The position numbers and the translations under genes were made by a program. The notes beneath the pieces were generated by a model. That model saw nothing but the letters and a program-made list of their open reading frames with translations, was not told where the DNA came from and did not search any database. This document shows, in pieces, positions 1,074-44,767 of a stretch of 64,000 nucleotides of DNA. Numbering within the stretch: position 1 is the first letter of the stretch; every line of letters begins with the position of its first letter. The DNA is from a virus (taxonomy: Duplodnaviria; Heunggongvirae; Uroviricota; Caudoviricetes): the IMG/VR virus record IMGVR_UViG_3300021963_000033; one strand, 5' to 3'.

Positions 1074-2729
1074 TTAGTATGTACCACCGTCGATATTACC
1101 GAACGCTGGAGCATTGCCTGAACCATTTGATGTCAGGACTTGACCTGCAGTTCCAACAGCAGTTGCTTGGATAGCAGAAGTACCGCCACCGAACAGAACG
1201 CCGTTAGCAGTCAACGACTGAGCGCCAGTACCACCATCTGAAACACCGATTGCCGCTGATAGACCAGAAACTGTTCCACCCGAGAGCGAACCTTCAAGGT
1301 TAGCAACAAGAGTAGCAACCGTGTATCCAGTTCCTGCTACGTTAACAGTTGTTGTTGGTGCAACTTCTAGATCGCGGAAGAGTTTCCACTTGTTGTCAGT
1401 AGCATCACGGAATAGACCAGCATATAGATCCTTCGAACCTGAAGTGTCATACATACCGAACAGACCGATGTCAACCGCATCAGTTGCGTCGTTGTCGTTA
1501 CCAACAAAGACCATTGGATCGGTTACTGAGATAGTTGTCGAGTTAACTGTAGTAGTTGTACCCGCGACTGTTAGGTTACCAGAGATAGTAACGTTTTCGG
1601 CAGTAAGGTCATCCGAATTCAATGTACCGGTTACAGTAACATCATTGAAGGTAACGTCGGCAGTTGTCGAAACGTCCTGACCGATTGCGATTGTTACTTC
1701 ACCGTTAGAAACCGAAGTCGCAACGCCTGTTCCGCCTGAGAAAGTTAGTGTTTCTTCAAGAAGATTGATGGAATCAGTACCTGTGTCACCAGCAACCGAA
1801 AGATCTGTCGAGACAGATACTTCACCAGCAGCAGTCAAACGACCTTGTGCATCAACTGTGAAAGTTGGAATTGCAGAAGCTGAACCGTACGAACCAGCAG
1901 TTACCGCTGTGTTGTCAAGATCGATAGTTCCGTTAGCATAAGATAGACCTACGCCGCCTGATACATAACCGTCAACTGCGTCTTCTACGCGACCAGTTGT
2001 AAAGTATAGGTTTGAACCCTCGGCAAGATCGCCAGTATCGTGGTTCGAAAGTGACGAAACAGTACCAGTTACATCACCAGTAAGGTCGGCATTAACTGAA
2101 TTAAACGTAACGTTTGCGGTTGTTCCAACGTCTTGACCGATGCTGATCTCGCCGTTCGAGTAAGAAACGCCTGTGCCACCCGAAAGGTGATTGTCAACGC
2201 GAGCAGTTGTGAAATAAAGATTGCTTGAACCTTCAGCAAGATCATCGGTATCGAACTGAGAAATTGTCATGTTCGCATCGTTATACGAAATTACACCAGT
2301 TACTGGGTCATACGAGATATCGCCAGTTGCGCTGATTGCGTTTCTTGCTCTTGTATCTGTGTAGTAAAGGTTTGTACCTTCAGCAAGATCGCCTGTGTCA
2401 TGGTTGCTGATGTCAGAAACTTGACCAGTTACGTCACCAACGAGATCTGCGGTAACAGTTCCTGCTGCGAAGTTACCTGAAGCATCACGCTTTACGATTG
2501 TCGAAGCAGTGTTTGCATTTGTGGCACCATCAACAGCAGCGGTATATTTCTTACCACCGATTGCGTCGATTGTTGCACCACCCGAAGAGTTTACAGATTC
2601 GATGTATAGAACACCAGATGCACCATTAGCGGAAGCATCTTGTGCATATGCCATTTCACCGACTAATAGATCGCTCGCTGATGGAGCAGCCGAACCTGCA
2701 CTTCTTTTAATTTGAATAATTGTTGACAT
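1074..2729 (-). CDS. tail fibre-like structural protein
   Basis: Fibre N-terminal motif (IQIKRS...GEMAY), Gly/Thr-rich beta repeats, three DTxDLAEGxxNLY(Y/F)T repeats and a C-terminal IDGGTY. Confidence 0.75.
   Translation of the reverse strand: MSTIIQIKRSAGSAAPSASDLLVGEMAYAQDASANGASGVLYIESVNSSGGATIDAIGGKKYTAAVDGATNANTASTIVKRDASGNFAAGTVTADLVGDVTGQVSDISNHDTGDLAEGTNLYYTDTRARNAISATGDISYDPVTGVISYNDANMTISQFDTDDLAEGSSNLYFTTARVDNHLSGGTGVSYSNGEISIGQDVGTTANVTFNSVNADLTGDVTGTVSSLSNHDTGDLAEGSNLYFTTGRVEDAVDGYVSGGVGLSYANGTIDLDNTAVTAGSYGSASAIPTFTVDAQGRLTAAGEVSVSTDLSVAGDTGTDSINLLEETLTFSGGTGVATSVSNGEVTIAIGQDVSTTADVTFNDVTVTGTLNSDDLTAENVTISGNLTVAGTTTTVNSTTISVTDPMVFVGNDNDATDAVDIGLFGMYDTSGSKDLYAGLFRDATDNKWKLFRDLEVAPTTTVNVAGTGYTVATLVANLEGSLSGGTVSGLSAAIGVSDGGTGAQSLTANGVLFGGGTSAIQATAVGTAGQVLTSNGSGNAPAFGNIDGGTY
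2000..2405 (-). repeat. three intragenic (H/F)DT(G/D)DLAEG-x1-2-NLY(Y/F)T protein repeats
   Basis: NHDTGDLAEGTNLYYT, QFDTDDLAEGSSNLYFT and NHDTGDLAEGSNLYFT in the 551-aa ORF. Boundaries approximate. Confidence 0.8.
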
Positions 2730-4770: not shown

Positions 4771-5585
4771 GAGTTAATTACATCTGCTGTAAATGGGGAA
4801 CAAAGTATTCCGCTGAGTTTGTCAACCGTCTCTATCGCATGGCAAAGAAGCACACTCCAGACAATTTTGAGTTTCATTTCTATTGCTATACAGATAACAG
4901 TGATGGTTTTGATAGTGAAATTAAAGTTATCGACTTCCCAGACATTCCCGACATCCATCCGAAATACTGGTTTGGTTCCGAAGATTTCAAATATGGTATG
5001 GCACGTTGTTGGGACAGACCAAAGACCTTTATCTTCAATACACACAACTTCGCAGAAGATAAACCGACTGGCAGATTTGTATTCTTCGATCTTGACGTAA
5101 TCATTCAAAATGATTTAACGCCGATTATTACCTACGATCTAGAGAATCCTACTAAGTTTCGATCGTGGTGGCAGGATCCTCGTCCAATGAAGTCGCGCAA
5201 CTTTAAGTTATCGCATGGTGCATATACGAATGGTAGTTGCATGGTATGGTCAAATGATCAGACAGAATGTATTTGGCAGGATGTTCTAGAGCACCAAGAA
5301 CGTATTTGGTTTACGTTTACAGATGGCACAGACAACTATCACAGTTGGCGGTGGGGCGACTTCAGCAATACGCCTCTATGGAAACACTTTCCTAATACAT
5401 TTGCATACTCATATAACCGAGGTCGCGACTGGGATTCTAGAGATCTTGAAGTTGGTATATATAGAAAAGACTGTATTGTTTGCGTCTTTAACGTGGATCT
5501 ACTTCCATTTACAGACAATAGCAGAGGTAAAGTGAAACAGGAATCGCTCGTCGATCCTAATTTATTAGAGCATTGGAATGTTTGA
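4767..5585 (+). CDS. GT-A fold glycosyltransferase-like protein, paralogue 3
   Basis: CCKWGTKYS, CYTDN, FFDLDV, NGSCMVW, GTDNYHSW. ATGA overlap with the previous gene. Confidence 0.72.
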   Translation: MRVNYICCKWGTKYSAEFVNRLYRMAKKHTPDNFEFHFYCYTDNSDGFDSEIKVIDFPDIPDIHPKYWFGSEDFKYGMARCWDRPKTFIFNTHNFAEDKPTGRFVFFDLDVIIQNDLTPIITYDLENPTKFRSWWQDPRPMKSRNFKLSHGAYTNGSCMVWSNDQTECIWQDVLEHQERIWFTFTDGTDNYHSWRWGDFSNTPLWKHFPNTFAYSYNRGRDWDSRDLEVGIYRKDCIVCVFNVDLLPFTDNSRGKVKQESLVDPNLLEHWNV

Positions 5586-6268
5586 TGATTAATATTTACA
5601 CAGTGAAGTGGGGATTCAAATATAGTGTTGACCATGTTAATAAAATACTCGAGCAATGCAGAGAACACATAACATCTGATTTCAATTTTTACTGCTTGAC
5701 TGAACACACAATTGGTTTACATTCTGACGTTATTGTAATTCCCTTCCCAGAAGATAACTACTATGAAAAATGGTGGAATAAATTATACTTATTCGATAAG
5801 CAAGTTGTATCTCAGCATGGAGAAAAACTATTTCTGGATCTAGATATAGTTATTCAAAACAATATCGATTGCATTGTAGACCACGATCCAGAAGATAGAT
5901 TGACATTTGTTCGCACCCACTGGCACAACATGAAGAAAATGAAACGCGATACGCAAGATATTCCTCGCGCATATACCGAACTAAATTCTAGCGTGTTAAG
6001 ATGGAATGACAGATTAGATGTTGATAAGATTACCAAGTTTGTCACAGATTATCCTGATCAAATGTTTTTTCATTATCGGGGTCTTGATAATCTTTTCGGA
6101 CATCAGCGCGACCGCTTATTGAAAATTGATTTTTTCCCATCTGGTTGGGTGTATAGTTACAACTACGGATATATGTGGCCAGTCGATACTAGAGAACAAA
6201 TTATCCGACCCGAACCACTAATTTGCCTATATGATTCTATGGAAAGACCACAAGATGTTAAATTATAA
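5585..6268 (+). CDS. GT-A fold glycosyltransferase-like protein, paralogue 4
   Basis: VKWGFKYS, CLTE, WWNKLYLF, FLDLDI, NSSVLRW, GLDNLF. TGATG overlap. Confidence 0.72.
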   Translation: MINIYTVKWGFKYSVDHVNKILEQCREHITSDFNFYCLTEHTIGLHSDVIVIPFPEDNYYEKWWNKLYLFDKQVVSQHGEKLFLDLDIVIQNNIDCIVDHDPEDRLTFVRTHWHNMKKMKRDTQDIPRAYTELNSSVLRWNDRLDVDKITKFVTDYPDQMFFHYRGLDNLFGHQRDRLLKIDFFPSGWVYSYNYGYMWPVDTREQIIRPEPLICLYDSMERPQDVKL

Positions 6269-6911
6269 TTACCTAAACAACTATCGCTTCTGGGGCGAAG
6301 GATTAGACAAGATCAACCACGAACTACCATGGAAGCATGAAGATTTTCGTAAATCGTTGAATCCCAATACGATGGACGCTGCTATTTGGTTGGTAGAAGA
6401 ACTACTGAAAGTAGAAGATATCCCAGAAGAATTGAATATTACAATTTTGAATTCGTGGTTGGGATTTCCCCTAGTACCATTACTCTGTGAAAATTTAAAT
6501 GTCAAAAAGATTAATTTGATCGACATTGATAAAGATGCCTTAGAACTATCGAAAGTGTTCAATCGTTATTATATTGACAATGGCATCGAGATGGATCATA
6601 TCAACTGGGATGTTCCCTTTGCATATCATGATATAAATGCAATAAATACTGATATGGTAATTTCTATTAGTTGTGAATCTATGTACCCATTGAAAAAAAT
6701 GACTACTGCAAATAAAGATTGCATCTTTGCGTGTCAGTCATCCAATGTTTTCAGAGAGATGTATGGTATTAATTGTGTTCCAACTATTGGGGAACATGTT
6801 AACAATGTTGGAGTTACCAATGTTTTATATGATGGTTCAATTAAACAGTCATATTACAGTTGGGATGGTAAGGTCGAGTTTGATCGTTTTATGGTAATCG
6901 GGAAGAAGTAA
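6255..6911 (+). CDS. class I SAM-dependent methyltransferase-like protein
   Basis: ITILNSWLG / INLIDID / MVISISCE Rossmann-type motifs. Paralogous to 50994..51578. Confidence 0.5.
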   Translation: MLNYNYLNNYRFWGEGLDKINHELPWKHEDFRKSLNPNTMDAAIWLVEELLKVEDIPEELNITILNSWLGFPLVPLLCENLNVKKINLIDIDKDALELSKVFNRYYIDNGIEMDHINWDVPFAYHDINAINTDMVISISCESMYPLKKMTTANKDCIFACQSSNVFREMYGINCVPTIGEHVNNVGVTNVLYDGSIKQSYYSWDGKVEFDRFMVIGKK

Positions 6912-6912
6912 C

Positions 6913-7647
6913 ATGGCAAGAGCAAGAGTCGTAGCACCACCACCACAAGATTATATTCCAGAACCTCTGGTAAATACCGTGGTTGTTGAACAGGAATCGC
7001 TAATCATTGAGGAAAGTATTCCTGAAGTATCGATTTGGGAAGATGGTAATTATGAAGAAGAAACCATCTCTGACCCATCGCCCGAAGAAATCGAGCAAGA
7101 ACGACTTGCGCAAGAGAAACATAATCAATTACAACAAAAGAAGTTAGAAGAGCAACAACTAGCGAAAGATGCAGAAGAAGCACTCGCCAAGGCAAAAGAG
7201 ATTATAGCAAATCCGCCTGTTGTAATTGAGACTGTAATAGAAACTGTCGTGGAGACAGTACATGTTCAGGATCCAGAAATCCTCAAAGAAATAGAAAATC
7301 TGCGCAAAGAAAATGAACAATTGTTGCAGATGAAACAAGCAATTGAAAAAACCAAAGAAGAAAAAATTCTTGCTGCCAGAAATAAAATGACTGAGCAAAA
7401 AGGCAATCAATTAAATTTGGTTACGCAGAGAAAACCTTCTTTGATGAATAGATTTAAAAATTATCTTCGCGCACGTCGAATAAAAAAAGCGACAGTCTCC
7501 ATCACAGGCAATAAAAACTATGAGACCGCCATAATTGAACGAGCAAAAATGGCGGTCCCTAAAATATTAGATGACATGGAAAAAATTCACGAGGAGTTGG
7601 TTATCTTTGAAGAACTTCTGGCAAAATATTTAGCACAGAAAAAGTAA
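6913..7647 (+). CDS. hypothetical acidic coiled-coil protein
   Basis: Long E/Q/K-rich ORF that continues the operon. No family recognised. Confidence 0.6.
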   Translation: MARARVVAPPPQDYIPEPLVNTVVVEQESLIIEESIPEVSIWEDGNYEEETISDPSPEEIEQERLAQEKHNQLQQKKLEEQQLAKDAEEALAKAKEIIANPPVVIETVIETVVETVHVQDPEILKEIENLRKENEQLLQMKQAIEKTKEEKILAARNKMTEQKGNQLNLVTQRKPSLMNRFKNYLRARRIKKATVSITGNKNYETAIIERAKMAVPKILDDMEKIHEELVIFEELLAKYLAQKK

Positions 7648-8325
7648 TCAACCGAAGTGCGACGCATCTTCACCCGAGATATCTTCGATCATTGACCGCC
7701 AGATTTCTAGATGAGGCACAACATAACCTAGTGTCAGTCTCTTGGCAGAGTTACCACAGCAGTGATAGACAATTTTATTGGGATCGCTGCGATCGCCAAA
7801 ATATCCAACCTTACATGACCACCCAACAGGGTCGACCATAGTTACGATTTCTTTTGTGACTGGATCTAAGTAGCGAAAGTATCCACCATTTTCTTCGGCA
7901 TTATATGTTATAAGAATATTATAACCCGATGCATTCCAGTTGGTATGCCAACCCATGAAACCATCTTCAGGATAGTAAGTAAACACCGCATTGTTTCTTG
8001 CACCAAGATAACTGATCAGTTCTCTATTAGTTTCTTGTTGCCTTCTGCCATACTCAGATGGAAACCATGATTGTCCATGCGCCTGTGACATGTCAGTACA
8101 CCATGCAACATCAGGGAATCCAACATGCTTTTCACCTTTACCTACGATGTGGTTCAGATATTGCTCGTCGGTAGCAGTGTCAACTGTTAATCCGCCTCGA
8201 CGTTTTTCCTGCATGTCTTGTGGACCCAGAACAAGATGCTGATCATTTTGAGCGAAGAACCATTTTGTGAATGGATCTAGAATATCGCTTAGTTCTTTAG
8301 AAACTGATTTTGTAAATTGTAGCAT
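7648..8325 (-). CDS. 2OG-Fe(II) oxygenase/cupin-like protein
   Basis: FMGWHTN...YHC...RLTLGY double-stranded beta-helix pattern, with HxN rather than HxD. Confidence 0.5.
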   Translation of the reverse strand: MLQFTKSVSKELSDILDPFTKWFFAQNDQHLVLGPQDMQEKRRGGLTVDTATDEQYLNHIVGKGEKHVGFPDVAWCTDMSQAHGQSWFPSEYGRRQQETNRELISYLGARNNAVFTYYPEDGFMGWHTNWNASGYNILITYNAEENGGYFRYLDPVTKEIVTMVDPVGWSCKVGYFGDRSDPNKIVYHCCGNSAKRLTLGYVVPHLEIWRSMIEDISGEDASHFG

Positions 8326-8336
8326 GCGTGTCCTGT

Positions 8337-9032
8337 TTAACTTAGTAAAGAATGCGGAATTGTGTAATGATAAATCACTACTGGTTGACCTTGTAATTCT
8401 TCTTTTTTATATCCGGAAACAAAGTTCCACCTAGCATCTGGATCAGGGAATCTGGCAGTCTTGACACCAAAATCGTAATGATTCAAAAGTCTCCACATTG
8501 TGAATGTGTCCCACTGTAGTGCAGATTCGGGATAATGTTTGCGATCCCATCCTGGTTTATTCTGCTCCCAATACTCACCATACCATGCACGCATGAGGTT
8601 TAATGTTTGTTCATTATTTCGATAGACGAACAACCCGCAGTGCTCAGTCATTTCTTCCGTATCAGATAACTTAGTCAGTGCTGCGTTATATGGACGATTG
8701 GCAGTAAACAATACATCTACATCTTCAGGTATCTGATCAAAGATCTTAGTTATGTCTTCGTGTTCAACTTCCGTATCACAATCCATGTAAACTGTCAGAT
8801 CGTATGGAGTTTGATCAAGCGCCCAAAGTTTTGCTCGCTTGTCCCGTGGTACGTTTTCAGTAATTACTGTATCAAAAATTTCATGATCATCTGGTTGAAC
8901 CCATTCCTCGTGCGTGAAGAATGTTATTTTTGCATCAGGATAGAAATCGCGTAGAGATATAGCGGAATTTCTCGCCGCCCTGTAGTAACCTTTTCTTACT
9001 GTTGCTACGTAGAGGAAACCATTATTCTGCAT
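8337..9032 (-). CDS. GT8-like/nucleotide-diphospho-sugar transferase
   Basis: GFLYVAT, KLWALDQTPYDLTVYMDCDT (DxD), WDTFTMW, WNF, IYHY. Start moved to MQNNG. Confidence 0.7.
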   Translation of the reverse strand: MQNNGFLYVATVRKGYYRAARNSAISLRDFYPDAKITFFTHEEWVQPDDHEIFDTVITENVPRDKRAKLWALDQTPYDLTVYMDCDTEVEHEDITKIFDQIPEDVDVLFTANRPYNAALTKLSDTEEMTEHCGLFVYRNNEQTLNLMRAWYGEYWEQNKPGWDRKHYPESALQWDTFTMWRLLNHYDFGVKTARFPDPDARWNFVSGYKKEELQGQPVVIYHYTIPHSLLS

Positions 9033-9477
9033 CGACTGCTTCTTGAACAATAGCAGCATTCGCTTCTTCTTGTTGCAGAAGAATAACCGTATAAGCAGTA
9101 ACTTCCATGATGTTCTTTGCTTTACGAATCTTAGATTTCAACTCGCGATTCTTTGAAGACTTAATTAGATCGATCTCGAACGCATCTAGTTTAGCAGCAA
9201 ACAGTTGCTCTTGCTGCATACGAGTCTTGTCAACCTTCTGGCGTTCAATGTTATGCTTAATATGTTGATTGCGGTCATCAAAACGCTTCTGGGTATTCGC
9301 ATCAATCTGCTCGATACTATACTTCTTCATCAACTCATCAAAGTCGCGATTAGTTCCGTCGTTCATAATCGATGCAGTCGCTCGTTTACCCGTGTCAGGA
9401 TAAACGAACTCTGCGATGACATGTTGTTTTTCTTTATTCGCCCAGTAAGGATTTTCAATAGTGCGTGTGGTAGTCAT
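9022..9477 (-). CDS. hypothetical protein (possible fibre chaperone)
   Basis: Clean ORF with GGAG SD directly downstream of the repeat fibres. Function inferred from position only. Confidence 0.55.
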   Translation of the reverse strand: MTTTRTIENPYWANKEKQHVIAEFVYPDTGKRATASIMNDGTNRDFDELMKKYSIEQIDANTQKRFDDRNQHIKHNIERQKVDKTRMQQEQLFAAKLDAFEIDLIKSSKNRELKSKIRKAKNIMEVTAYTVILLQQEEANAAIVQEAVDAE

Positions 9478-9512
9478 TCAAATCTCCATTAAAAAATAAT
9501 TTCTCAATATTA

Positions 9513-9541
9513 TATATACGCTACTTTACTCAAGAAGTCAA
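9513..9541 (-). promoter_or_regulatory. sigma70-like promoter
   Basis: TTGACT-17 bp-TATATA upstream of the 9477/9032/8325 genes. Confidence 0.55.
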
Positions 9542-9546
9542 GGTTT

Positions 9547-11415
9547 TTATACAGTGCGAACCCAAAGTTTTATTGTCGATACAGTTTCTTTGGTTGCAAT
9601 CACTGTTGCACCAGAGAAGTTGCTTGAATACGTTCCACTAAAGTTGCTGGCATAGTTACCAGTATAGTTTCTAGAACCTGAATAGTAACCAGTGTAGTTA
9701 CCTGTAAAGTATCCAGTATAGTTACCAGTGTAGGTTGCAGTTCCTGCATAGTAACCAGTGTAGTTACCTGTAAAGTATCCAGTATAGTTACCAGTGTAGG
9801 TTGCAGTTCCTGCGTAATTGCCAGAGAAATAACCAGTATATGTGCCTGAATATGTTCCAGTATATGTTGCTGGACCGACATAATTGCCTGTAAAGTATCC
9901 CAGATATGTGCCGAGATATGTACCAGCATAGTTACCTACATAGTTTCTAGATCCTGAGAAGAATCCAGTATATGTTCCGAGGTAGTTACCTGCATAGTTA
10001 CCAGTATAGTTTCTCGAACCGCTATACGTTCCGAGATAATTCCCGCTGAAACTACCAAGATAATTTCCTGTGAAGTTGCTCGAATAAGTTCCGAGATAGT
10101 TACCTGCGAAATTTCCACCAACGAAACCACCAAAGAATCGTGTATATGTTCCTAGGTAGTTACCAGAGAAGTTACCGAGATATGTTCCGGAGAAGTTGCG
10201 CGAATAAGTTCCGAGATAGTTACCTGCGTAGTTACCTGCATAGTTTCTCGAACCAGAATATGTTCCTAGATAGTTTCCGCTGAAGTTACCTGCGTAGTTA
10301 CCTGCATAGTTTCTCGAACCAGCATAAAAACCAGTATAATTACCACTGAAGTTGCTTGCATATGTTCCAGAATAACCAGCAGTTCCTACAAAGTTACCGA
10401 CATAGTTTCCACTGAAACCTCCCGAGTAAGTTCCGGAATAGTTTGCTGGTCCGACATATCCGCCGCTGAAATTATTTGCATATGCCCCAGAGTAATTTCC
10501 TGTGTAGTTTGCTGGTCCAACATAACCGCCGCTGAACGTATTTGCAAAGTTACCCTGGAAGTTTCCAGCATAGTTTGCAGTATAGTTTCTTGAACCTGAA
10601 AAGTTGCCGAGATAGTTACCAGAGAAGTTACCTAGATAGTTCTGTGGTGTTACTTGCTCTCGGGTATCAGCAAACTCATTACCCATTTCAACCCAAGTGC
10701 CGCTTCCTGGTGCTGTAGATTGAACCTTATATGTGCCGATTCCAGTGTCAATGATTCTGTTTCTGAAACTCGGAAGCATCTGTAGAATTTCAGAAGATGA
10801 CATTTCCTTGACATCTTTGGTATCAATAAGTTTTAGTGGTCTGAGATTGGAGTCTGCTAGTGAAGATGCAGCAGTTTTCTGCCATAGATATGTTACTGTG
10901 TTACCGCCATTGGCAACATCAGTTAATGTGTATCGAGCAACCCATGTTCCGCCTGATGGCGCTGTTGGTTGGAGGCGATATTGTCCTGCAGCATATGAAG
11001 ACTCAGTGATCATTGCATTAATTGCGTAGTCTAGAATTTCGGTATCAATTTGACCATCAGTCATTTCTTTGATGCCATCGTCATATTTCAACGGACGATT
11101 GGTAATATTTTCCGTCGCAGCAGCAGTAACCTGTTTAGCGGTATATGTGACAGTGTCAACCGCGCCAGTTGCTGGGTGAGTTCCTGTTGCTTCTTGGCGA
11201 TCGGTGTCAACGAATGTTCCGATAGAAGTACCAGAACCGCTGTTGTTTGTCGTGATATTAATTTCAGCGGTACCAGTACCATCTGAGTTTGCACCAAAGG
11301 AAACTGTCAGAGTTTGCGCAATATAATTCTTTACTTCATCTGCAGACATCTGCTGCAGACCCTGCCAGTTCGCAGCAGAAACTGGTGTTGCTGATGATTT
11401 GTTTCTTAAAACCAT
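9547..11415 (-). CDS. Tyr/Gly/Asn tetrapeptide-repeat fibre protein B
   Basis: N-terminal domain paralogous to 11418..13505, about 350 aa of x(Y/F)xG repeats, C-terminus ATKETVSTIKLWVRTV. Start moved to MVLRNK. Confidence 0.75.
   Translation of the reverse strand: MVLRNKSSATPVSAANWQGLQQMSADEVKNYIAQTLTVSFGANSDGTGTAEINITTNNSGSGTSIGTFVDTDRQEATGTHPATGAVDTVTYTAKQVTAAATENITNRPLKYDDGIKEMTDGQIDTEILDYAINAMITESSYAAGQYRLQPTAPSGGTWVARYTLTDVANGGNTVTYLWQKTAASSLADSNLRPLKLIDTKDVKEMSSSEILQMLPSFRNRIIDTGIGTYKVQSTAPGSGTWVEMGNEFADTREQVTPQNYLGNFSGNYLGNFSGSRNYTANYAGNFQGNFANTFSGGYVGPANYTGNYSGAYANNFSGGYVGPANYSGTYSGGFSGNYVGNFVGTAGYSGTYASNFSGNYTGFYAGSRNYAGNYAGNFSGNYLGTYSGSRNYAGNYAGNYLGTYSRNFSGTYLGNFSGNYLGTYTRFFGGFVGGNFAGNYLGTYSSNFTGNYLGSFSGNYLGTYSGSRNYTGNYAGNYLGTYTGFFSGSRNYVGNYAGTYLGTYLGYFTGNYVGPATYTGTYSGTYTGYFSGNYAGTATYTGNYTGYFTGNYTGYYAGTATYTGNYTGYFTGNYTGYYSGSRNYTGNYASNFSGTYSSNFSGATVIATKETVSTIKLWVRTV
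9683..9813. repeat. 66-bp-period tandem duplication (22-aa unit)
   Basis: 9683-9747 is identical to 9749-9813 by eye. Confidence 0.8.
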
Positions 11416-11417
11416 GT

Positions 11418-13505
11418 TTATGCTGTCCTTACCCACAATTTAACAGATGAAACTGTTTCTTTGGTTGCTTGTATTGTTGCGCCGGAATATGTTCCTGTAA
11501 AGTTATTTATATAAGAACCAGAATAAGTTCCGGAGTAGTTCGTAGTTCCAGTGTAATACCCAGTATATGCTGTTCCTACGCCCGCGAAATATCCTGTGTA
11601 ATAACCTGTGTAGTTTGTGATACCAGTATAGTTTCCAGTATAGTTTGGACCTGGAGTTGGTGATCCAGGAATTACACCAGCATAAAATCCAGTATAGTTA
11701 GTTGGAGTTGGTGATCCAGGAATTACACCAGCATAAAATCCAGTATAAGAACCACTGTAGTTACTACCTGGAGTTGGTGCACCAGAAAAATACCCAGCGT
11801 AAGTTCCCGAGTAATATACTAGACCACTATATCCTGGACCTTCATAGTTACCAGTATAGTTTCTAGATCCAGAATAAAATGCTGGTCCAGAATAGTTTGT
11901 TAGTCCTGTGAAATAACCGATATAACTCGCAGGTCCTGTGTAAAACCCAGTATAGTTTGGCCCAGCAGGTGCCGGCCCAAGATAACCACCAGTATAAGGT
12001 GTTGGTGTTGGTCCAGTGTAACTAGAATAAAATCCAGTGTAGAATGCTGGTTGCGGTGTTGGACTTAGATATTCGCCAGTATAAGCATCTCCAGGTTCTC
12101 CAGGTGCTAGAGGTGGACCTTCATAGTATCCAGTAAAATACTGCTGCACTGGAGTGCCTTGATAAGATCCCTGATAGTTCGTTAATCCGCCTGGAACAAT
12201 TCCCTCATAATATCCTGTGAAGTATTGGAATGTTCCTGGTTCAACACCACTAGCATACTCGCCGCTATATGATTGAGTTCCAGTAAAGAACCCAGCAAAG
12301 TTATTTTCTGTTGGACCAAGGTAGTTTACAGGCGCGCCAGCATAAGTGCCAGCATAGTTTCTGGAACCTGAATAGAACCCGCTGAAGAAACTTGGTGACC
12401 CGTCTGTATAATATCCCGTAAAGTATCCTGTATAACTTGGTGCCGGAGAAGGCGATCCAGCATAAAAACCAGCATAGTTACCAGTATAGTTCGTTGGAGT
12501 CGGCGATCCAGGAATTACACCAGCATAGTTACCAGTATAGTTCGTTGGAGTCGGCGATCCAGGAATTAAACCAGAATAGTTTCCAGTATAATTAACTGGT
12601 GATTGATAATTTCCAGTAAAGTTACTACTGTAATTTCCTGACACAGAATACGGTGCAGAATATGTAACTGGACCAGCATAGTTACCACTATAATTACCAG
12701 TAAAGTTTCCGCTGTAATTACCAGCATAGTTCTGTGGTGTTACTTCTTCACGAGTATCCGTGAATGTGTTTCCTGTTTGAATCCAAGTGCCGCCACTAGG
12801 CGCATCCGTTTGGATTTTATATGTTCCAATACCCGTTTCAATAATTCTATTTCTGAAGACTGGAAGCATCTGTTCGATTTCTGCTTCAGTCATCTGCTTA
12901 CAGTTACCACCATTAAAAACTCTTAGTGGCGTATAATCTACTGTTGGCGCTGAAGATGCAACTGTTTTCTGCCACAGATATGTTACAGTGTTTCCACCTT
13001 GCGCTGTATCTGTTATTGTATATCTTGCAACCCAAGTTCCGCCCGATGGAGCAGTTGCTTGTAGTTTATATTGACCAGCAGTATATGATGAATCTGCAAC
13101 CATTGCATCAATACAGAGATCCATTGTGCTATCAATGTCACTGTCTGACATTTCTTCTAGACGAGAATCCCATGCAAGTGGTCGGTTGGTAATATTTTCA
13201 GTCGCCGAAGCAGTAACTTGCTTAACATAATATGTTGTTGTAGAAACTGAACCAGTAGCAGGGTGTGCCCCGATAGATTCAGTTCTGTTGGTGTCAACAA
13301 AAGTTCCGATTGACGTACCAGAACCTGAGTTATTTGTAGTAATGTTGATTTCAGCGGTTCCAGTACCATCTGTTACTGCAGCAAATTTTTCTGTGATTAC
13401 ATTGGCAATATAATTTTTTACCTCTGCATCGGTCATGGTCTGCAAACCGCTGATGTTTGCAGAAGTGATTGGGGACCCTGTTGCCTTGACCTTTAGAGGA
13501 TTCAT
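11418..13505 (-). CDS. Tyr/Gly/Pro-repeat fibre protein A
   Basis: Same N- and C-terminal domains as fibre B. Central x(Y/F)xG repeats are interrupted by GSPTP/PAP motifs. Confidence 0.75.
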   Translation of the reverse strand: MNPLKVKATGSPITSANISGLQTMTDAEVKNYIANVITEKFAAVTDGTGTAEINITTNNSGSGTSIGTFVDTNRTESIGAHPATGSVSTTTYYVKQVTASATENITNRPLAWDSRLEEMSDSDIDSTMDLCIDAMVADSSYTAGQYKLQATAPSGGTWVARYTITDTAQGGNTVTYLWQKTVASSAPTVDYTPLRVFNGGNCKQMTEAEIEQMLPVFRNRIIETGIGTYKIQTDAPSGGTWIQTGNTFTDTREEVTPQNYAGNYSGNFTGNYSGNYAGPVTYSAPYSVSGNYSSNFTGNYQSPVNYTGNYSGLIPGSPTPTNYTGNYAGVIPGSPTPTNYTGNYAGFYAGSPSPAPSYTGYFTGYYTDGSPSFFSGFYSGSRNYAGTYAGAPVNYLGPTENNFAGFFTGTQSYSGEYASGVEPGTFQYFTGYYEGIVPGGLTNYQGSYQGTPVQQYFTGYYEGPPLAPGEPGDAYTGEYLSPTPQPAFYTGFYSSYTGPTPTPYTGGYLGPAPAGPNYTGFYTGPASYIGYFTGLTNYSGPAFYSGSRNYTGNYEGPGYSGLVYYSGTYAGYFSGAPTPGSNYSGSYTGFYAGVIPGSPTPTNYTGFYAGVIPGSPTPGPNYTGNYTGITNYTGYYTGYFAGVGTAYTGYYTGTTNYSGTYSGSYINNFTGTYSGATIQATKETVSSVKLWVRTA
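11652..11747. repeat. 51-bp-period tandem duplication (17-aa unit FYAGVIPGSPTP)
   Basis: A 45-bp identical block occurs at 11652 and 11703. Confidence 0.75.
12469..12590. repeat. 51-bp-period tandem duplication (17-aa unit NYTGNYxGxIPGSPTPT)
   Basis: Near-identical blocks starting at 12481 and 12532. Confidence 0.75.
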
Positions 13506-39906: not shown

Positions 39907-39935
39907 TGGGGGAGCGAAACGCTCCCCCAAGTTTT
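39907..39935. terminator. intrinsic terminator between convergent operons
   Basis: TGGGGGAGCG-AAA-CGCTCCCCCA followed by AGTTTTT. Confidence 0.8.
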
Positions 39936-40858
39936 TAGTCATCAGCGAGACTCGAGAAGTAACTCATCGTGTCATCGTCACTGTCTTCTTTCCAAGGTGG
40001 ACTGTCATCTGTTGCCTTGGCAGCAGGTGCATTACGCATCTTAGTTTCAACGAACAGTTCATCTTCAGCATCAAGAGGATTAACCTTCTCAGCAGTTGCC
40101 ATACGAGAACCGCCTGTGAGAACAGCATTCATCTTCGCCTTCAGTTCATCATATGACTTGAAGTTCGAAGGATCCAGGAAAGTGGCAAGCGAATGCGCAT
40201 TCTTCCAGACCTGCTCCAACTTATCTTCATCCTCATCAAGAGGTGTTGGACCATCGAATTCTGACTTATCGTAGTTACGATAACCTTCAACCTGACGAAT
40301 GCGCAACTTGAAGTTAGCACCTTCCCAAAGGTCGAATGGGTTGACTGGTTTTTCATCTTCAAAGGTTGGTTGCATCACATCCTTGATCTTGTCAAAGATT
40401 TTCTTACCATACTTATAGAGGAATACCTTACCTTCATTCTCAGGATTTGCGGGATCGCGAATCACTAGAACGTTGGAGATGTAGGAAAGACGACGCTTTT
40501 GTTTACGAGCGATTTCCTTATTCGCTTCGATACCTGAGTTCCAAAGTTCGGAATTCAGTTCGCCGACTGGATCTGGTTTATTGATTGTGGTCAACGAGTT
40601 TTCGATATACCACTTTCCAGTTGGACCCTGGAAACCATGATCAAAAACGCGAACCCAAGGAAGTTCTTCACCAGCGGGTGCAGGAAGAAAGCGAAGTACT
40701 GCTTGACCATTGCCTGCCTTGTCGACAGTTGGTTTCCAGAAGCGATCGTCGTCGCCACGCTTTTCATTTGATGGGTTTGCGATTGACTCAACTGCCTTCA
40801 TGAGTGAGTCGAAGTTTCCGCGATTCTTGCGGAGTTCTGATAGTGAATTAATTGACAT
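39935..40858 (-). CDS. gp32: single-stranded DNA-binding protein gp32
   Basis: DDRFWKPTVDKAGNG.AVLRFLPAP, HGFQGPTGKWYIENSLTT, YKYGKKIFDKI, acidic tail DDDTMSYFSSLADD. Confidence 0.95.
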   Translation of the reverse strand: MSINSLSELRKNRGNFDSLMKAVESIANPSNEKRGDDDRFWKPTVDKAGNGQAVLRFLPAPAGEELPWVRVFDHGFQGPTGKWYIENSLTTINKPDPVGELNSELWNSGIEANKEIARKQKRRLSYISNVLVIRDPANPENEGKVFLYKYGKKIFDKIKDVMQPTFEDEKPVNPFDLWEGANFKLRIRQVEGYRNYDKSEFDGPTPLDEDEDKLEQVWKNAHSLATFLDPSNFKSYDELKAKMNAVLTGGSRMATAEKVNPLDAEDELFVETKMRNAPAAKATDDSPPWKEDSDDDTMSYFSSLADD

Positions 40859-40887: not shown

Positions 40888-41052
40888 TTAGTATTTGCGA
40901 TTTGTATCATAATCATCGTAGTCGTCATCATCATGACTACTAGAGTATTTATACAAGTTTTTACGGTGCTTATTTGTTTTGTCAACACCCTTGCGTACTT
41001 CTTTTACTCTTGGTTCAGAACCATAGTAATCTTTACTTCTTGAATTGCTCAT
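40888..41052 (-). CDS. small hypothetical protein (basic N-terminus, Asp-rich C-terminus)
   Basis: MSNSRSKDYYGSEPRVKEVRKG...HDDDDYDDYD. TAATG coupling to gp59. Confidence 0.6.
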   Translation of the reverse strand: MSNSRSKDYYGSEPRVKEVRKGVDKTNKHRKNLYKYSSSHDDDDYDDYDTNRKY

Positions 41053-41654
41053 TAACAGACCATTTGACCTTTCTCGTTGATCCATAGTTGAGAGAATTTC
41101 GCCTTATCGAAACGAACGAATGGGCGATACTTACTTATCAAAAGATTTAAATCATTCCAGATAAAATCATTCAACAATTCAGTATTTACATTATACCTGA
41201 AATCTAGTAGTTTGTCAAGTATAATAACTGTTTCTAGTGAAATTTTATTGCCCAACAACATCCTAATTACTATTGGATGTTGTTTATCATATGAAACCAG
41301 AGGGTCTTGCTCTGCCTTCTCTGCTTCTAGGAGCAAGCGACTAATATCGTCTGCGAACATGTAAGATAATCTATCTTGTCTACCTTTCCACTTTTCATAG
41401 ATGTCATCAGAATCTGCACTAAAGATGCCGCCGTTCTTATCTCCTGCTGCAAAGTTTGCAACAAAGTAGTTGATAATTTCTTGACGAGCGACGAACTTCT
41501 TCGCCAGTTTCCTGAATAGGAAAACATCTCTCCGTTTTAAGAAGGCAGATTCTGATGACTTGACAGCACCTTTAGTAACGGTGATGTCATATGTTGGAGT
41601 AGTAAAGTGTAGTTTAAGTGCCATGTAGAGGCGATAAACTTCATATGCTTCCAT
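41052..41654 (-). CDS. gp59: helicase loader gp59
   Basis: YRLYMALKLHFT...YD, F.KRRD..LF.KLAKK, YFVANF, ISLETVIILD. Confidence 0.88.
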   Translation of the reverse strand: MEAYEVYRLYMALKLHFTTPTYDITVTKGAVKSSESAFLKRRDVFLFRKLAKKFVARQEIINYFVANFAAGDKNGGIFSADSDDIYEKWKGRQDRLSYMFADDISRLLLEAEKAEQDPLVSYDKQHPIVIRMLLGNKISLETVIILDKLLDFRYNVNTELLNDFIWNDLNLLISKYRPFVRFDKAKFSQLWINEKGQMVC

Positions 41655-41923
41655 TAAAGTGGTAATTTCCCGCCAGATTTACGCTTTAGCATATTTAGTT
41701 CTTCTGCTTCTGCTCTAATCTTTTCTTTAAGGGAAGTGGTGAGTAAAACAGCAACTGACTCCATCTCAATATCTTTTTTGACACAATAGTCAAGAAGAAT
41801 ATCCAAACAGGGAATACCATTCTCGAATGATTGTTTCTCTATGAATTGAGAGAACTCAGTTGCTGAATTATACTCTTTTGTAATTAAAAATTCATTGGTT
41901 ACTTCAGAACCATCCATTACCAT
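41654..41923 (-). CDS. gp33: late transcription coactivator gp33
   Basis: FSQFIEK...LDILLDYC...IEMESVA.LL..SLKEKIRAEAEELNML. Confidence 0.88.
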   Translation of the reverse strand: MVMDGSEVTNEFLITKEYNSATEFSQFIEKQSFENGIPCLDILLDYCVKKDIEMESVAVLLTTSLKEKIRAEAEELNMLKRKSGGKLPL

Positions 41924-41934
41924 GTTCAAAGTTA

Positions 41935-42540
41935 TTATCCTGCATAAAAAATGTGATCACCGATTTTCGCAACACGCCTCAAGTTCCATCTTGGATTTAC
42001 ATAATCCGCATGGTAGAATAGCACGTTACGTCCAAGTATACCCTGATTTGCCCCAGAAAGCAATACTTTTTCAGCAACTTTTTTAGATTCTGAATATTGC
42101 TGGGCACTGCGCACGCTCTTATTACCTTCGCATACCCACGAGAACTGGCAAACACGCTTAGTTCTCTGATATACGACTGCGCATACAGACTTCGGGAATT
42201 TGGGACTTTTTACGCGATTGATAGTTACTGCAGCAACCGCCAACTTACCTTGAGTTGACTGGTTTCCTGCTTCGTAGTAAATATTGTCTGCTAGACATTT
42301 TAATTCGCGATTATTTGCTAAGTGTATATTTTGGGTTTCAATTTTTCTTAGCGCGACTTTCTTTTTTTCTTCTGCCGCATCTTCTTTAATCTCTTGGATT
42401 ACTTCTACAAAGCCGAGGGAATATTCCCTCGTATCTCTCTCGATAGCATCTTCAGCATATGAATTGATTCCATATAAACTATATACTAATACTGTAAAAA
42501 TCGAAAGAAACTTGAAAAACTTCTTGTTAAAGGAAGTCAT
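41935..42540 (-). CDS. SleB/Hydrolase_2 cell-wall hydrolase with N-terminal hydrophobic signal
   Basis: CLADNIYYEAGNQ...GKLAVAAVTINRV....FP..VC.VVYQ...CQFSW, FYHADYVNPRW, IGDHIFY. Confidence 0.9.
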   Translation of the reverse strand: MTSFNKKFFKFLSIFTVLVYSLYGINSYAEDAIERDTREYSLGFVEVIQEIKEDAAEEKKKVALRKIETQNIHLANNRELKCLADNIYYEAGNQSTQGKLAVAAVTINRVKSPKFPKSVCAVVYQRTKRVCQFSWVCEGNKSVRSAQQYSESKKVAEKVLLSGANQGILGRNVLFYHADYVNPRWNLRRVAKIGDHIFYAG

Positions 42541-42611
42541 CTTATTTCCTAATACTTGTTAAACTTGAGAGGGTATTATCCAGTGACTCCCCACACTGGT
42601 TGCCCGAAGAC

Positions 42612-42658
42612 AAAAAAACCCACTATGCGTGCTTTTTCAAGTAGAGGCGTAGTGGGTT
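42612..42658 (-). terminator. intrinsic terminator downstream of tmRNA
   Basis: AACCCACTACGC...GCATAGTGGGTT stem followed by a T7 run on the minus strand. Confidence 0.75.
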
Positions 42659-42665
42659 ATGCAAA

Positions 42666-42673
42666 TATTTATA
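42666..42673 (-). promoter_or_regulatory. late promoter TATAAATA
   Basis: Exact consensus, 7 nt upstream of the terminator hairpin. Confidence 0.6.
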
Positions 42674-42679
42674 AGCATA

Positions 42680-43086
42680 GAACCGCAGCGAAACTCGGTC
42701 CACCCGTTTAATCGAACGGTTGATAGTTTTATTCTGTTTCGAGGAAAAACTATCAAAAACCCAATGCTAGCTTAAGCAGCTAGAGCAAAGGCAACGTTAT
42801 CGTTTGCATTTACATTTAGTGGCGCTTTGCCAGTCAATCAGTCTCGGTATTCCTATTACACGAAAATCGAATTCCAAGGTCACCCCCATCATCATCCATC
42901 ACGTTAGGTATCTCCTTGCGCTAGGAGACCTTGTCACAAACCAAATTTACCGTTATGCGCACTCACGAATAAACTAGTATGCCACGGCTGCACTGAAATG
43001 CACCACCGAGGTGATGAATGATGGTGGAGGTGGGGGGAGTCGAACCCCCGTCTTTCCGCTTTTATTGTCAACTGTCATCAACTGAT
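42680..43086 (-). ncRNA. ssrA: circularly permuted (two-piece) tmRNA
   Basis: The acceptor piece ends GACGGGGGTTCGACTCCCCCCACCTCCACCA (3' end at 43022). The coding piece starts GGGGGTGACCTTGGAATTCGA at 42887. The acceptor stem GGGGGTG/CACCTCC has G3-U70. The tag frame at 42807-42772 reads ANDNVAFALAA*. Outer ends are approximate. Confidence 0.93.
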
Positions 43087-43090
43087 AATC

Positions 43091-43121
43091 TATTTATACT
43101 ATAGATTCTTTTAGAAGTCAA
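43091..43121 (-). promoter_or_regulatory. composite sigma70 and late promoter for tmRNA
   Basis: TTGACT(43121-43116)-17 bp-TATAAA, whose -10 box is part of an exact TATAAATA (43098-43091). Confidence 0.75.
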
Positions 43122-43126
43122 GTGTT

Positions 43127-43300
43127 TTATGCTTCCCACGGAAGTTTTTTTCCTACCGACCCCCATTTACCAATAGGGCAGGATGCACGATTTAGTTTAG
43201 TTTTTGCGGGCATGAGACAACCGCATTTCATGCACAGTTTTGCTTTTAAAAACTCACACTGTCTACAAATTTCCATCCGTTGTTCGGACAGTTCACTCAC
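43127..43300 (-). CDS. small Cys-rich (zinc-binding) protein
   Basis: RMEICRQCEFL...CMKCGCLMPAKTKL..ASCPIGKW. The GTG start overlaps the exonuclease stop. Confidence 0.7.
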   Translation of the reverse strand: MSELSEQRMEICRQCEFLKAKLCMKCGCLMPAKTKLNRASCPIGKWGSVGKKLPWEA

Positions 43301-43976
43301 TGGTATAATACCCATTTTCATAATAGTCGCGAGTGCGAAGAAGTTTCTTCACCCAGTCGTCGCGCTTTTCGATGAATACCTGAGGAACATCATCTTCAAC
43401 TGCGATTAGAATTACCAACCATGGAACAGGAATCCCAGTACGTTCTTCATACATGATAGCATATGCTGCCGTCTGCATGAAGTAACTCTCAATGTATGAT
43501 TTTGACTTCGGTTTATTTGAAGTCTTAAAATCGATAACAGCACGTTTACCGTTATACTCAGCAATACAGTCGACGCGACCTGCCATACGCAGATGATCAC
43601 TGTAAAGTGCAAGTTCCTGGCAATGAATGTTACTGATTGGATCTAAGATAGATTTGAATTTGTTGAACATCTCGACGTCGAGCATCGATGCTTTGACTTC
43701 ATCAATCTTGTCGCTTACGTTTTCGTTTTTGAGATACGTTTCAGTTAGTGTGTGGATCTTAGTTCCGCGAGTTGATGCTTGTCTGGAAATCTTATCCGCT
43801 TCTTCTTCGCCAACACGCTTTCGCCAAGCAGCGATAGAGTCGCGAGAAAGAACACCAAGAACGGTGGTGGCAGAGGGATATGCAGCGCCACTGGCATTTA
43901 CATAAACTCTACCACCATCTTCGCTCGTAGTTGATTGGGCAAAATCTTCATAATCATATATCGTTTCAAACATCAT
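43293..43976 (-). CDS. PD-(D/E)XK exonuclease
   Basis: YPSATTVL, RGTKIH, AGRVDCIAEY.G...VIDFKTS, YFMQTAAYA. Confidence 0.9.
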   Translation of the reverse strand: MMFETIYDYEDFAQSTTSEDGGRVYVNASGAAYPSATTVLGVLSRDSIAAWRKRVGEEEADKISRQASTRGTKIHTLTETYLKNENVSDKIDEVKASMLDVEMFNKFKSILDPISNIHCQELALYSDHLRMAGRVDCIAEYNGKRAVIDFKTSNKPKSKSYIESYFMQTAAYAIMYEERTGIPVPWLVILIAVEDDVPQVFIEKRDDWVKKLLRTRDYYENGYYTSE

Positions 43977-44014: not shown

Positions 44015-44767
44015 CTAATTATGTTTTTCTTCGTATTCTAAACGAGCAAGGATATATTCCTTGACAAGTTTTGACCTAACAATATCATTCACGGAAAATT
44101 CAACCGTCTTAAATGATGGCATCATGTCAGCAATTGCGATAAACTTTTGCAACCCTGACATGTCGTTCTTTTTATTTAGGTCGGTCTGGCGGAAGTCTCC
44201 ACAGAAGATAATCTTGGAGTTCTTACCGATACGAGTCATAATAGAGTTGAGTTCCATGTCAGTCATGTTCTGACATTCGTCAACGATTATGATTGAGTTA
44301 TCAAGTGTGATACCACGCACGAACGAGGTGATTAGGAAATGAACGGTCTTTTGTTCCTGCATGCGCTGGAAGGGTTGGATGTGATTGAACAAGTCATCAC
44401 AGATCTCAACATATGGTAAAGTATAGACCTCTGTTTTTTCCTTCTCGTCACCTGGAAGGTGTCCGATATCTCTTGATGGTACTGCTGAACGCACGACAAC
44501 CACACGTTCATAGTCTGTTGTTTGATCAAGTACTTCTTCAAGTGCTTTATACATGGAAATAAAAGTTTTTCCTGTTCCTGCTACCCCATGTAGTAGCATC
44601 GCAGTGGACTGTTGGTTGTAAAGATCGAAAAAGAGTCGTTGGTTTTGTGTCTTTGGTTGAATGTGTTTTAGATCAGAATGTTTTACTTTGCACAGTTTAC
44701 TCTTTTCAATTGTTACTTTTGGTTCAGAATTCGTTACAACTTGGAGGTTGTTTTTTCTTCTTGTCAT
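44015..44767 (-). CDS. phoH: PhoH-family ATPase
   Basis: GVAGTGKT, RSAV...DIGHLPG, SFVRGITLDNSIIIVDECQN, TRIG...GDFRQTDL. Confidence 0.95.
   Translation of the reverse strand: MTRRKNNLQVVTNSEPKVTIEKSKLCKVKHSDLKHIQPKTQNQRLFFDLYNQQSTAMLLHGVAGTGKTFISMYKALEEVLDQTTDYERVVVVRSAVPSRDIGHLPGDEKEKTEVYTLPYVEICDDLFNHIQPFQRMQEQKTVHFLITSFVRGITLDNSIIIVDECQNMTDMELNSIMTRIGKNSKIIFCGDFRQTDLNKKNDMSGLQKFIAIADMMPSFKTVEFSVNDIVRSKLVKEYILARLEYEEKHN

Follow-up and report, generated by a model that had tools for sequence, protein, structure and literature searches.

What does a T4-like phage encode in the gap between a nuclease gene and a cell-wall hydrolase gene, and does the product work? In the stretch of viral DNA analysed here, 64,000 nucleotides long (the window), the sole gene called by ARAGORN lies in this gap, at 42681-43116 on the minus strand, and is a permuted tmRNA, a form of the RNA that releases stalled ribosomes and labels incomplete proteins for degradation. 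Two Rfam covariance models agree: tmRNA_permuted (RF04321) matches 42772-43086(-) with 86.7 bits (cut-off 47, E 3e-15) and alpha_tmRNA (RF01849) matches 42722-43125(-) with 55.7 bits (cut-off 50), for an overall extent of 42681-43125(-). The preliminary description had proposed a circularly permuted two-piece tmRNA to be checked with ARAGORN and the alpha model; both checks came out positive, the second narrowly. The matches support a complete permuted tmRNA of a T4-like phage, and the sequence comparisons described below indicate that it is a genuine and very probably functional two-piece tmRNA. A blastn search of the locus in 50,697 phage records gave no match, the DNA having diverged too far, and the comparisons were made with protein and pattern searches.

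The neighbourhood places the gene in known company. Judging by its gp32, gp59 and gp33 genes, the window is from a T4-like phage: the T4-type neighbours gp32 (39935-40858) and gp59 (41052-41654) are followed by a gp33-like late-transcription coactivator (41654-41929) and the cell-wall hydrolase (41935-42540), and beyond the tmRNA lie a PD-(D/E)XK nuclease (43293-43976) and PhoH (44015-44767). The order PhoH, nuclease, tmRNA, gp33-like, gp59, gp32 is that of Methylophilales phage Melnitz, whose record reads PhoH, nuclease, small ORFs, ssrA, gp33, gp59, gp32; the window gp32 protein is closest to those of Melnitz (56.5%) and Pelagibacter phage HTVC008M (54.7%). The IMG/VR relatives are contigs of 150-171 kb rated 92-100% complete. 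A two-piece alpha-like ssrA has been described in Melnitz, with counterparts in related pelagimyophage-like contigs (Buchholz et al., 2022; PMC9004378), in a study that tallied 53 two-piece tmRNAs across phage genomes and found 17 of 47 Melnitz-like contigs to have a permuted one (PMC9004378). Among 80 related viral contigs that we gathered through the nuclease, 29 have a permuted tmRNA just downstream of it. As a class, the phage two-piece tmRNA is thus not new (PMC9004378): because the slot is that of the Melnitz ssrA and 29 of the 80 contigs use it likewise, we count the window gene as a further member, one that adds a well-dissected example to the published class. Twelve of the 80 contigs (L044-L046, L052-L054, L056, L057, L059, L062, L063 and L068) have tRNA-Thr(UGU) downstream of the nuclease instead. 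Just upstream of the tmRNA promoter of the window is a 64-aa Cys-rich ORF (43127-43321(-); DUF6171, 34.8 bits; phrog_13558).

How far does the likeness to Melnitz go? Both are T4-like aquatic myophages with a permuted tmRNA, a tag that begins ANDN, a CTTGAC-N17-TATAAATA promoter, a long spacer with a closing stem, and the same slot between the PD-(D/E)XK nuclease and gp33/gp59/gp32. They differ in that the window tag is shorter and the window has a cell-wall hydrolase gene between tmRNA and gp33, while Melnitz has a glutamine riboswitch, an element common at the ssrA 3' end but not defining (PMC9004378); no such riboswitch was found in 42300-43400 at E values up to 10. The T loop, GGCAGUA (alpha-type) in Melnitz and UUCGACU in the window, is a further difference that bears on the subtype.

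As had been described, the gene reads back to front on the minus strand: the raw sequence has the T arm and CACCTCC-ACCA ending at 43022 and, after an intervening spacer, a 5' end GGGGGTG at 42887. The acceptor piece (about 65 nt, 43022-43086(-)) is delimited by the Rfam match, sequence and covariation, its 5' end being predicted from the promoter and from where the Rfam match begins. It holds, in transcript order, a helix A strand AUCAGU (43086-43081), a P2a strand GCGGAAA (43059-43053), the T arm with its UUCGACU loop (43049-43033), the acceptor 3' strand CACCTCC (43032-43026) and an encoded ACCA (43025-43022). The coding piece (core 42676-42887(-), G1 at 42887) opens with the acceptor 5' strand GGGGGTG (42887-42881), contains the D-loop analogue, and supplies the partners for P2a (UUUUCGU, 42866-42860, pairing with 43059-43053) and helix A (ACUGAU, 42842-42837, pairing with 43086-43081), followed by a small hairpin (42832-42820). 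In its 3' domain, the alpha-model alignment identifies a helix GAUAGUUUU/AAAACUAUC with CGAAACAGAAU in the loop (42722-42754), whose strands (42754-42746 and 42730-42722) enclose the AACAGAA loop, a conserved alpha-type 3' element; relatives carry GGCGG/CCGCC in this helix, with three compensatory pairs. Two further hairpins (42719-42704 and 42701-42680) complete the 3' domain, and where pseudoknot 1 would normally lie there is just a 4-bp hairpin.

What holds the two pieces together? The seven-pair acceptor stem between them, with the G3-U70 alanyl identity pair, is present as claimed; among 28 non-redundant phage copies, G3-U70 is invariant (28/28), the stem is paired in nearly all, and the T arm and P2a stay paired through several pair types. 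Helix A is paired in 22-26 of the 28, and its compensatory switches include C-G to A-U and G-C to U-A. The 13-bp P2 proposed earlier, CAGTTGAT(GA)CAGTT with GACTGATTGACTG, can form in this sequence, but its register is not kept in relatives: it loses 3 of 13 pairs in L016 (read from the alignment), is not kept in L013 either, and is less well kept across the 28 copies, so that we rejected it. Covariation instead supports P2a plus helix A as the pairing between the pieces. A two-strand energy fold recovers the acceptor stem, the T arm and the tag hairpin and pairs P2a elsewhere, which is why covariation was relied on for this helix. Positions 43082-43067 have two alternative pairings, an internal hairpin or a helix with 42837-42831, each with some compensatory change.

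Could such a structure be the decaying, functionless remnant of a captured bacterial ssrA? The scores are low enough to raise the question (86.7 bits on RF04321 compared with 118-171 for most bacterial alpha tmRNAs, a tally, and the only figure here, that takes in one unpublished genome, G051), and a tmRNA is present in only some relatives, the 29 of 80. Yet dozens of phages show compensatory covariation, keep G3-U70 without exception and retain both an intact tag and a conserved promoter, which speaks against a remnant. Moreover, no sampled bacterial tmRNA exceeds 48% identity to the mature window tmRNA, against 62-97% for the phage copies, values that argue for long residence under selection. 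Decay is therefore disfavoured as extremely improbable; on these identities, the gene is a long-term phage resident and says little about the present host.

The tag frame GCA..TAA (42772-42807(-), found by ARAGORN and Rfam) encodes ANDNVAFALAA* from 42807 to 42772, as previously read; it is preceded by a conserved GUAAAU, and its stop codon sits in the loop of a P5-like hairpin (42767-42783(-), from fold and sequence). Tags differ among the phage relatives, and nearly all end in ..ALAA, LAA, MAA or VA. A search for ANDNxAFALAA* found it in the genomes of 32 species, every one carrying the label Alphaproteobacteria or unclassified Pseudomonadota, with Sphingomonadales, Rhodospirillales and Micavibrio among them; 27 of the 32 have ANDNEAFALAA, one residue away from the window tag, and none of the 32 has V at position 5. 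The comparison with sphingomonad tags thus stands in so far as Sphingomonadales have ANDNEAFALAA, but other Alphaproteobacteria have it too, hence it is unspecific.

An intact tag also bears on whether the RNA tags at all. It might instead bind host SmpB or ribosomes as a decoy and block host trans-translation. There is a precedent in mycobacteriophage DS6A, which encodes little beyond the tRNA-like domain; a molecule of this kind is an inhibitor of tmRNA, possibly because it titrates SmpB (PMC4131195; PMC11915505), and the tRNA-like domain of the window gene does depart from the alpha type. However, the phage family has kept the tag frame with its GUAAAU context, the hairpin around the stop codon and the ALAA ending, none of which a pure decoy would need; this leaves the alternative with little probability next to a functional, tagging tmRNA.

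If the tag and the 3' domain look alphaproteobacterial, is the whole molecule? Bacterial alpha two-piece tmRNAs (RF01849), of which that of Caulobacter is an example (Keiler et al., 2000, as cited in PMC9004378), share with the window gene the permuted order, G3-U70, an ANDN...ALAA tag and the 3' helix with the AACAGAA loop; the window differs in its reduced pseudoknot 1 region, in being phage-borne and in having no smpB. The assignment to the alphaproteobacterial type accordingly holds in part: the RF01849 score exceeds the cut-off, and the tag and the AACAGAA loop fit, but the score is marginal and the T loop atypical. On RF01849, bacterial alpha tmRNAs reach 188-231 bits, Melnitz 106.7 and the window 55.7. 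A near-identical copy of the window tmRNA scores 57.2 bits with the alpha, 45.3 with the beta (cut-off 84) and 22.7 with the cyano model, making alpha the best subtype model. The weak alpha score arises because the tRNA-like domain departs from the alpha type: in place of the alpha-type T loop GGCRGNN (found in 68/68 parsed bacterial alpha tmRNAs) and the AGGAUCGAC D-loop analogue, the window tmRNA has an ordinary tRNA-kind T loop, UUCGACU, and a longer D-loop analogue, UUGGAAUUCGAU. Subtype models can evidently mislead where the tRNA-like domain has been remodelled.

The change of T loop can be followed within one syntenic phage lineage, from GGCAGUA (Melnitz, L009) through UGCAACU (L005, L013, L016) to UUCGACU in the window clade, a stepwise series that amounts to a natural experiment on what SmpB and the ribosome demand of the tRNA-like domain. 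A canonical UUCGA-type T loop is shared with beta-type tmRNAs (RF01850; phage contigs L025 and L089), and the T arm and acceptor 3' strand of the window are identical to those of L089; unlike the beta type, the window has an alpha-like tag and 3' domain. These two phage copies, with beta-model scores of 156 bits (L025) and 131 bits (L089), served as the beta references, and no beta_tmRNA match above the cut-off was found in 151 sampled Pseudomonadota genomes. Beta-type two-piece tmRNAs occur in the related phages L025 and L026 (4262-4644 and 3658-4040, respectively), L089 and L095, with the tags ANDSQFALAA and ANSDSFRLVA among them; those of L025 and L026 occupy the same slot as the window gene, next to a nuclease 50% identical to that of the window.

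Who, then, is the host? The preliminary description had taken the tmRNA to point to an alphaproteobacterium, and this did not survive comparison: Melnitz has an alpha-type ssrA and infects OM43, which is not an alphaproteobacterium (PMC9004378), and relatives carry beta-type tmRNAs in the same slot. Because of both facts, the host is, on sequence grounds, not inferable from the window tmRNA; more generally, neither the subtype nor the tag of a phage tmRNA identifies the host. The lack of SmpB in the window, also proposed earlier, was borne out by a search of all six frames, and SmpB is likewise absent from relatives rated 92% and 100% complete. Phage tmRNAs without a phage smpB are known from the mycobacteriophage Bxz1 group, Bacillus phage G and DS6A (PMC4131195); these, in contrast to the window gene, are one-piece and unpermuted, belong to unrelated phages with unrelated hosts, and in DS6A lack a tag (PMC4131195). 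Taken together, phage two-piece tmRNAs suggest that large aquatic phages run their own ribosome rescue and tagging through host SmpB. In the relatives G001, G002 and G003 there is an ORF of 211-230 aa from the Clp protease family (PF00574, 42-50 bits; G001:C1:123352-123768, G002:C1:80964-81380, G003:C1:5017-5430), of which we found no homologue in the window.

When would the gene be expressed? The composite promoter lies exactly where it had been placed: a -35-like hexamer TTGACT (43116-43121(-), read from the sequence) is followed after 17 nt by TATAAATA (43091-43098(-)), which is both -10-like and an exact T4-type late-promoter motif. Among aligned relatives covering the region, Melnitz included, CTTGAC[T/A] is kept in 20 of 20 while the flanks vary, and TATAAATA is kept in most relatives. 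All 12 copies of TATAAATA in the window are on the minus strand (4.4 expected), an excess consistent with T4-type late promoters; the TTGAC plus TATAAATA composite is expected 0.26 times. Expression throughout infection, as the preliminary description had it, is at most suggested by the conserved promoter motifs. A second exact TATAAATA (42666-42673(-)) lies in the tmRNA 3' trailer, upstream of the cell-wall hydrolase gene, and its TAAATA core is retained in relatives; it directly precedes a terminator-like hairpin and the hydrolase gene. This hairpin (42612-42658(-)), a 9-bp stem followed by U7 (-15 kcal/mol, z -3.1) whose stem covaries among relatives, is likely where the primary transcript ends.

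A functional phage-encoded two-piece tmRNA (ssrA) is the best explanation of the locus, and one in which we have high confidence. Counting against it are scores that are low for a tmRNA, the reduced pseudoknot 1 region and the competing pairings within part of the acceptor piece. Observed directly are the gene anatomy, its conservation and covariation among phages, a gene order shared with Melnitz and the absence of smpB from the phage; we further infer the transcription limits, processing, charging, tagging and benefit to the phage as follows. A single transcript would probably start near 43086 and end at the hairpin and U-run near 42612. The RNase P of the host would generate the 5' end at G1 (42887), and the encoded CCA (43022) would be where 3' trimming halts. 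With the 134-nt spacer gone, an acceptor RNA of about 65 nt would remain, paired with a coding RNA of no less than 210 nt through the 7-bp acceptor stem, P2a and helix A. Charging through G3-U70 would fall to the alanyl-tRNA synthetase of the host, and delivery to stalled ribosomes to its SmpB and EF-Tu. Translation, restarting at GCA (42807), would append ANDNVAFALAA, and the ALAA terminus would mark the product for host proteases.

But is the spacer, presumably cut out and discarded, mere filler? At 134 nt (42888-43021(-)) it falls within the range of phage spacers (3-159 nt) and outside that of bacterial ones (2-83 nt). It folds into an 11-bp closing stem with three inner hairpins (-44.7 kcal/mol, z -2.7) and has no credible ORF, the longest being 19 codons with no ribosome-binding site. 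Between close relatives, the acceptor and coding pieces are 95-100% identical while the spacers are unrelated: compared with the spacers of near-identical tmRNAs, that of the window shows similarity no higher than shuffled sequence, and in L090 the acceptor piece is 100% and the coding piece 98% identical to the window, with unrelated spacers. Homologues were found elsewhere, in six other contigs: L129 (1501-1632(-)), L130 (10399-10533(-)), L132 (2137-2268(+)), L133 (11978-12110(-)), L131 (338-456(+)) and L084 (8879-9014(-)). Five aligned copies give 42 consensus pairs, 8 of them with compensatory changes, by which the spacer is a conserved structured RNA family of about 134 nt. A "throw-away" spacer, in other words, can itself be a conserved RNA.

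Where do the copies reside? All intact ones are flanked by an encoded ACCA end on one side and a G1 start on the other (in L131 just the ACCA side remains), two of them in tmRNAs (the window and L133, the latter with the tag ANDNESIALAA) and four in back-to-front tRNA-like genes. In these four, L129 (about 1470-1710(-)), L130 (about 10340-10620(-)), L132 (about 2060-2330(+)) and L084 (about 8840-9090(-)), a tRNA-type 3' half with T arm and ACCA comes first, then the spacer, then a 5' half with D arm; the outer ends are held together by a conserved stem between leader and trailer, AGGCTGT.. / ..ACAGCC. ARAGORN and Rfam miss all four genes as they stand, with no YrlA match among the Rfam results at these loci; when the halves are rejoined in silico, ARAGORN calls tRNA-Pro(UGG) for L129 and L132. 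In L129, L130 and L084 the permuted gene adjoins a DUF2828/DUF7788 gene; the DUF2828 protein had no match in a sequence search against solved structures.

These observations invite the converse reading, that the locus is foremost a processing scaffold in which tRNA-type cuts at CCA and G1 release the spacer as a small RNA that is the selected product in this phage. The conserved fold with compensatory changes, the recurrence of the same element at the CCA/G1 junction of other tRNA-like genes and the small ORFs carried by related spacers all speak for it. Nevertheless, conservation of the mature tmRNA parts extends far beyond that of any single spacer, and in close relatives the spacer is 3 nt long (L011, L012) or unrelated, which makes it look like an add-on, not the reason for the gene. 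We consider the scaffold improbable as the explanation of the locus, and note that it is compatible with the tmRNA reading.

Returning to the functional tmRNA, we can ask how such an add-on came to sit where it does. Tentatively, and with more doubt than belief, we suggest that the CCA/G1 junction of back-to-front tRNA-like genes in aquatic phages is a portable slot, the spacer being a mobile, structured module that is released by tRNA processing and has moved between a tmRNA gene and DUF2828/DUF7788-linked permuted tRNA-like genes; exchange with such neighbours could explain the ordinary tRNA-type T loop as well. In L084, the tRNA-like RNA and DUF2828 module lies between a window-like tmRNA and the hydrolase gene, with gp59 downstream; in the window, the interval between tmRNA and hydrolase is almost empty (about 70 nt). 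The L084 region (5115-12156) also places a tRNA(CUA) with the permuted tRNA-like RNA and the DUF2828 gene between tmRNA and hydrolase/gp59. Such CUA-anticodon tRNAs, of the amber suppressor type, are found in L129 (2842-2918(-)), L130 (12768-12844(-)) and L084 (10961-11039(-)), and L129 has a gene resembling tRNA-Gly(UCC) in which extra segments lie on either side of the acceptor strands (1730-1815(-)).

Some spacers have coding potential of their own. The 134-nt spacers of four near-identical tmRNAs contain a 58-codon Cys-rich ORF (CxC...CCxxC; L008:3719-3895, L090:2181-2357(-), L082:2281-2457, L094:11529-11705) that reaches into the coding piece at its 5' end; L090, L082 and L094 have a ribosome-binding site ahead of this ORF, and L008 has none. 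A BFD-like 2Fe-2S domain was considered for its product and rejected, as no Pfam family matched. Differences between the copies are mostly synonymous, by a hand count from the alignment. The ssrA spacer of Melnitz (L001, about 6332-6510) likewise contains an unannotated ORF, of about 54 codons (MFKWLSKTRL..), with GGAGAA upstream.
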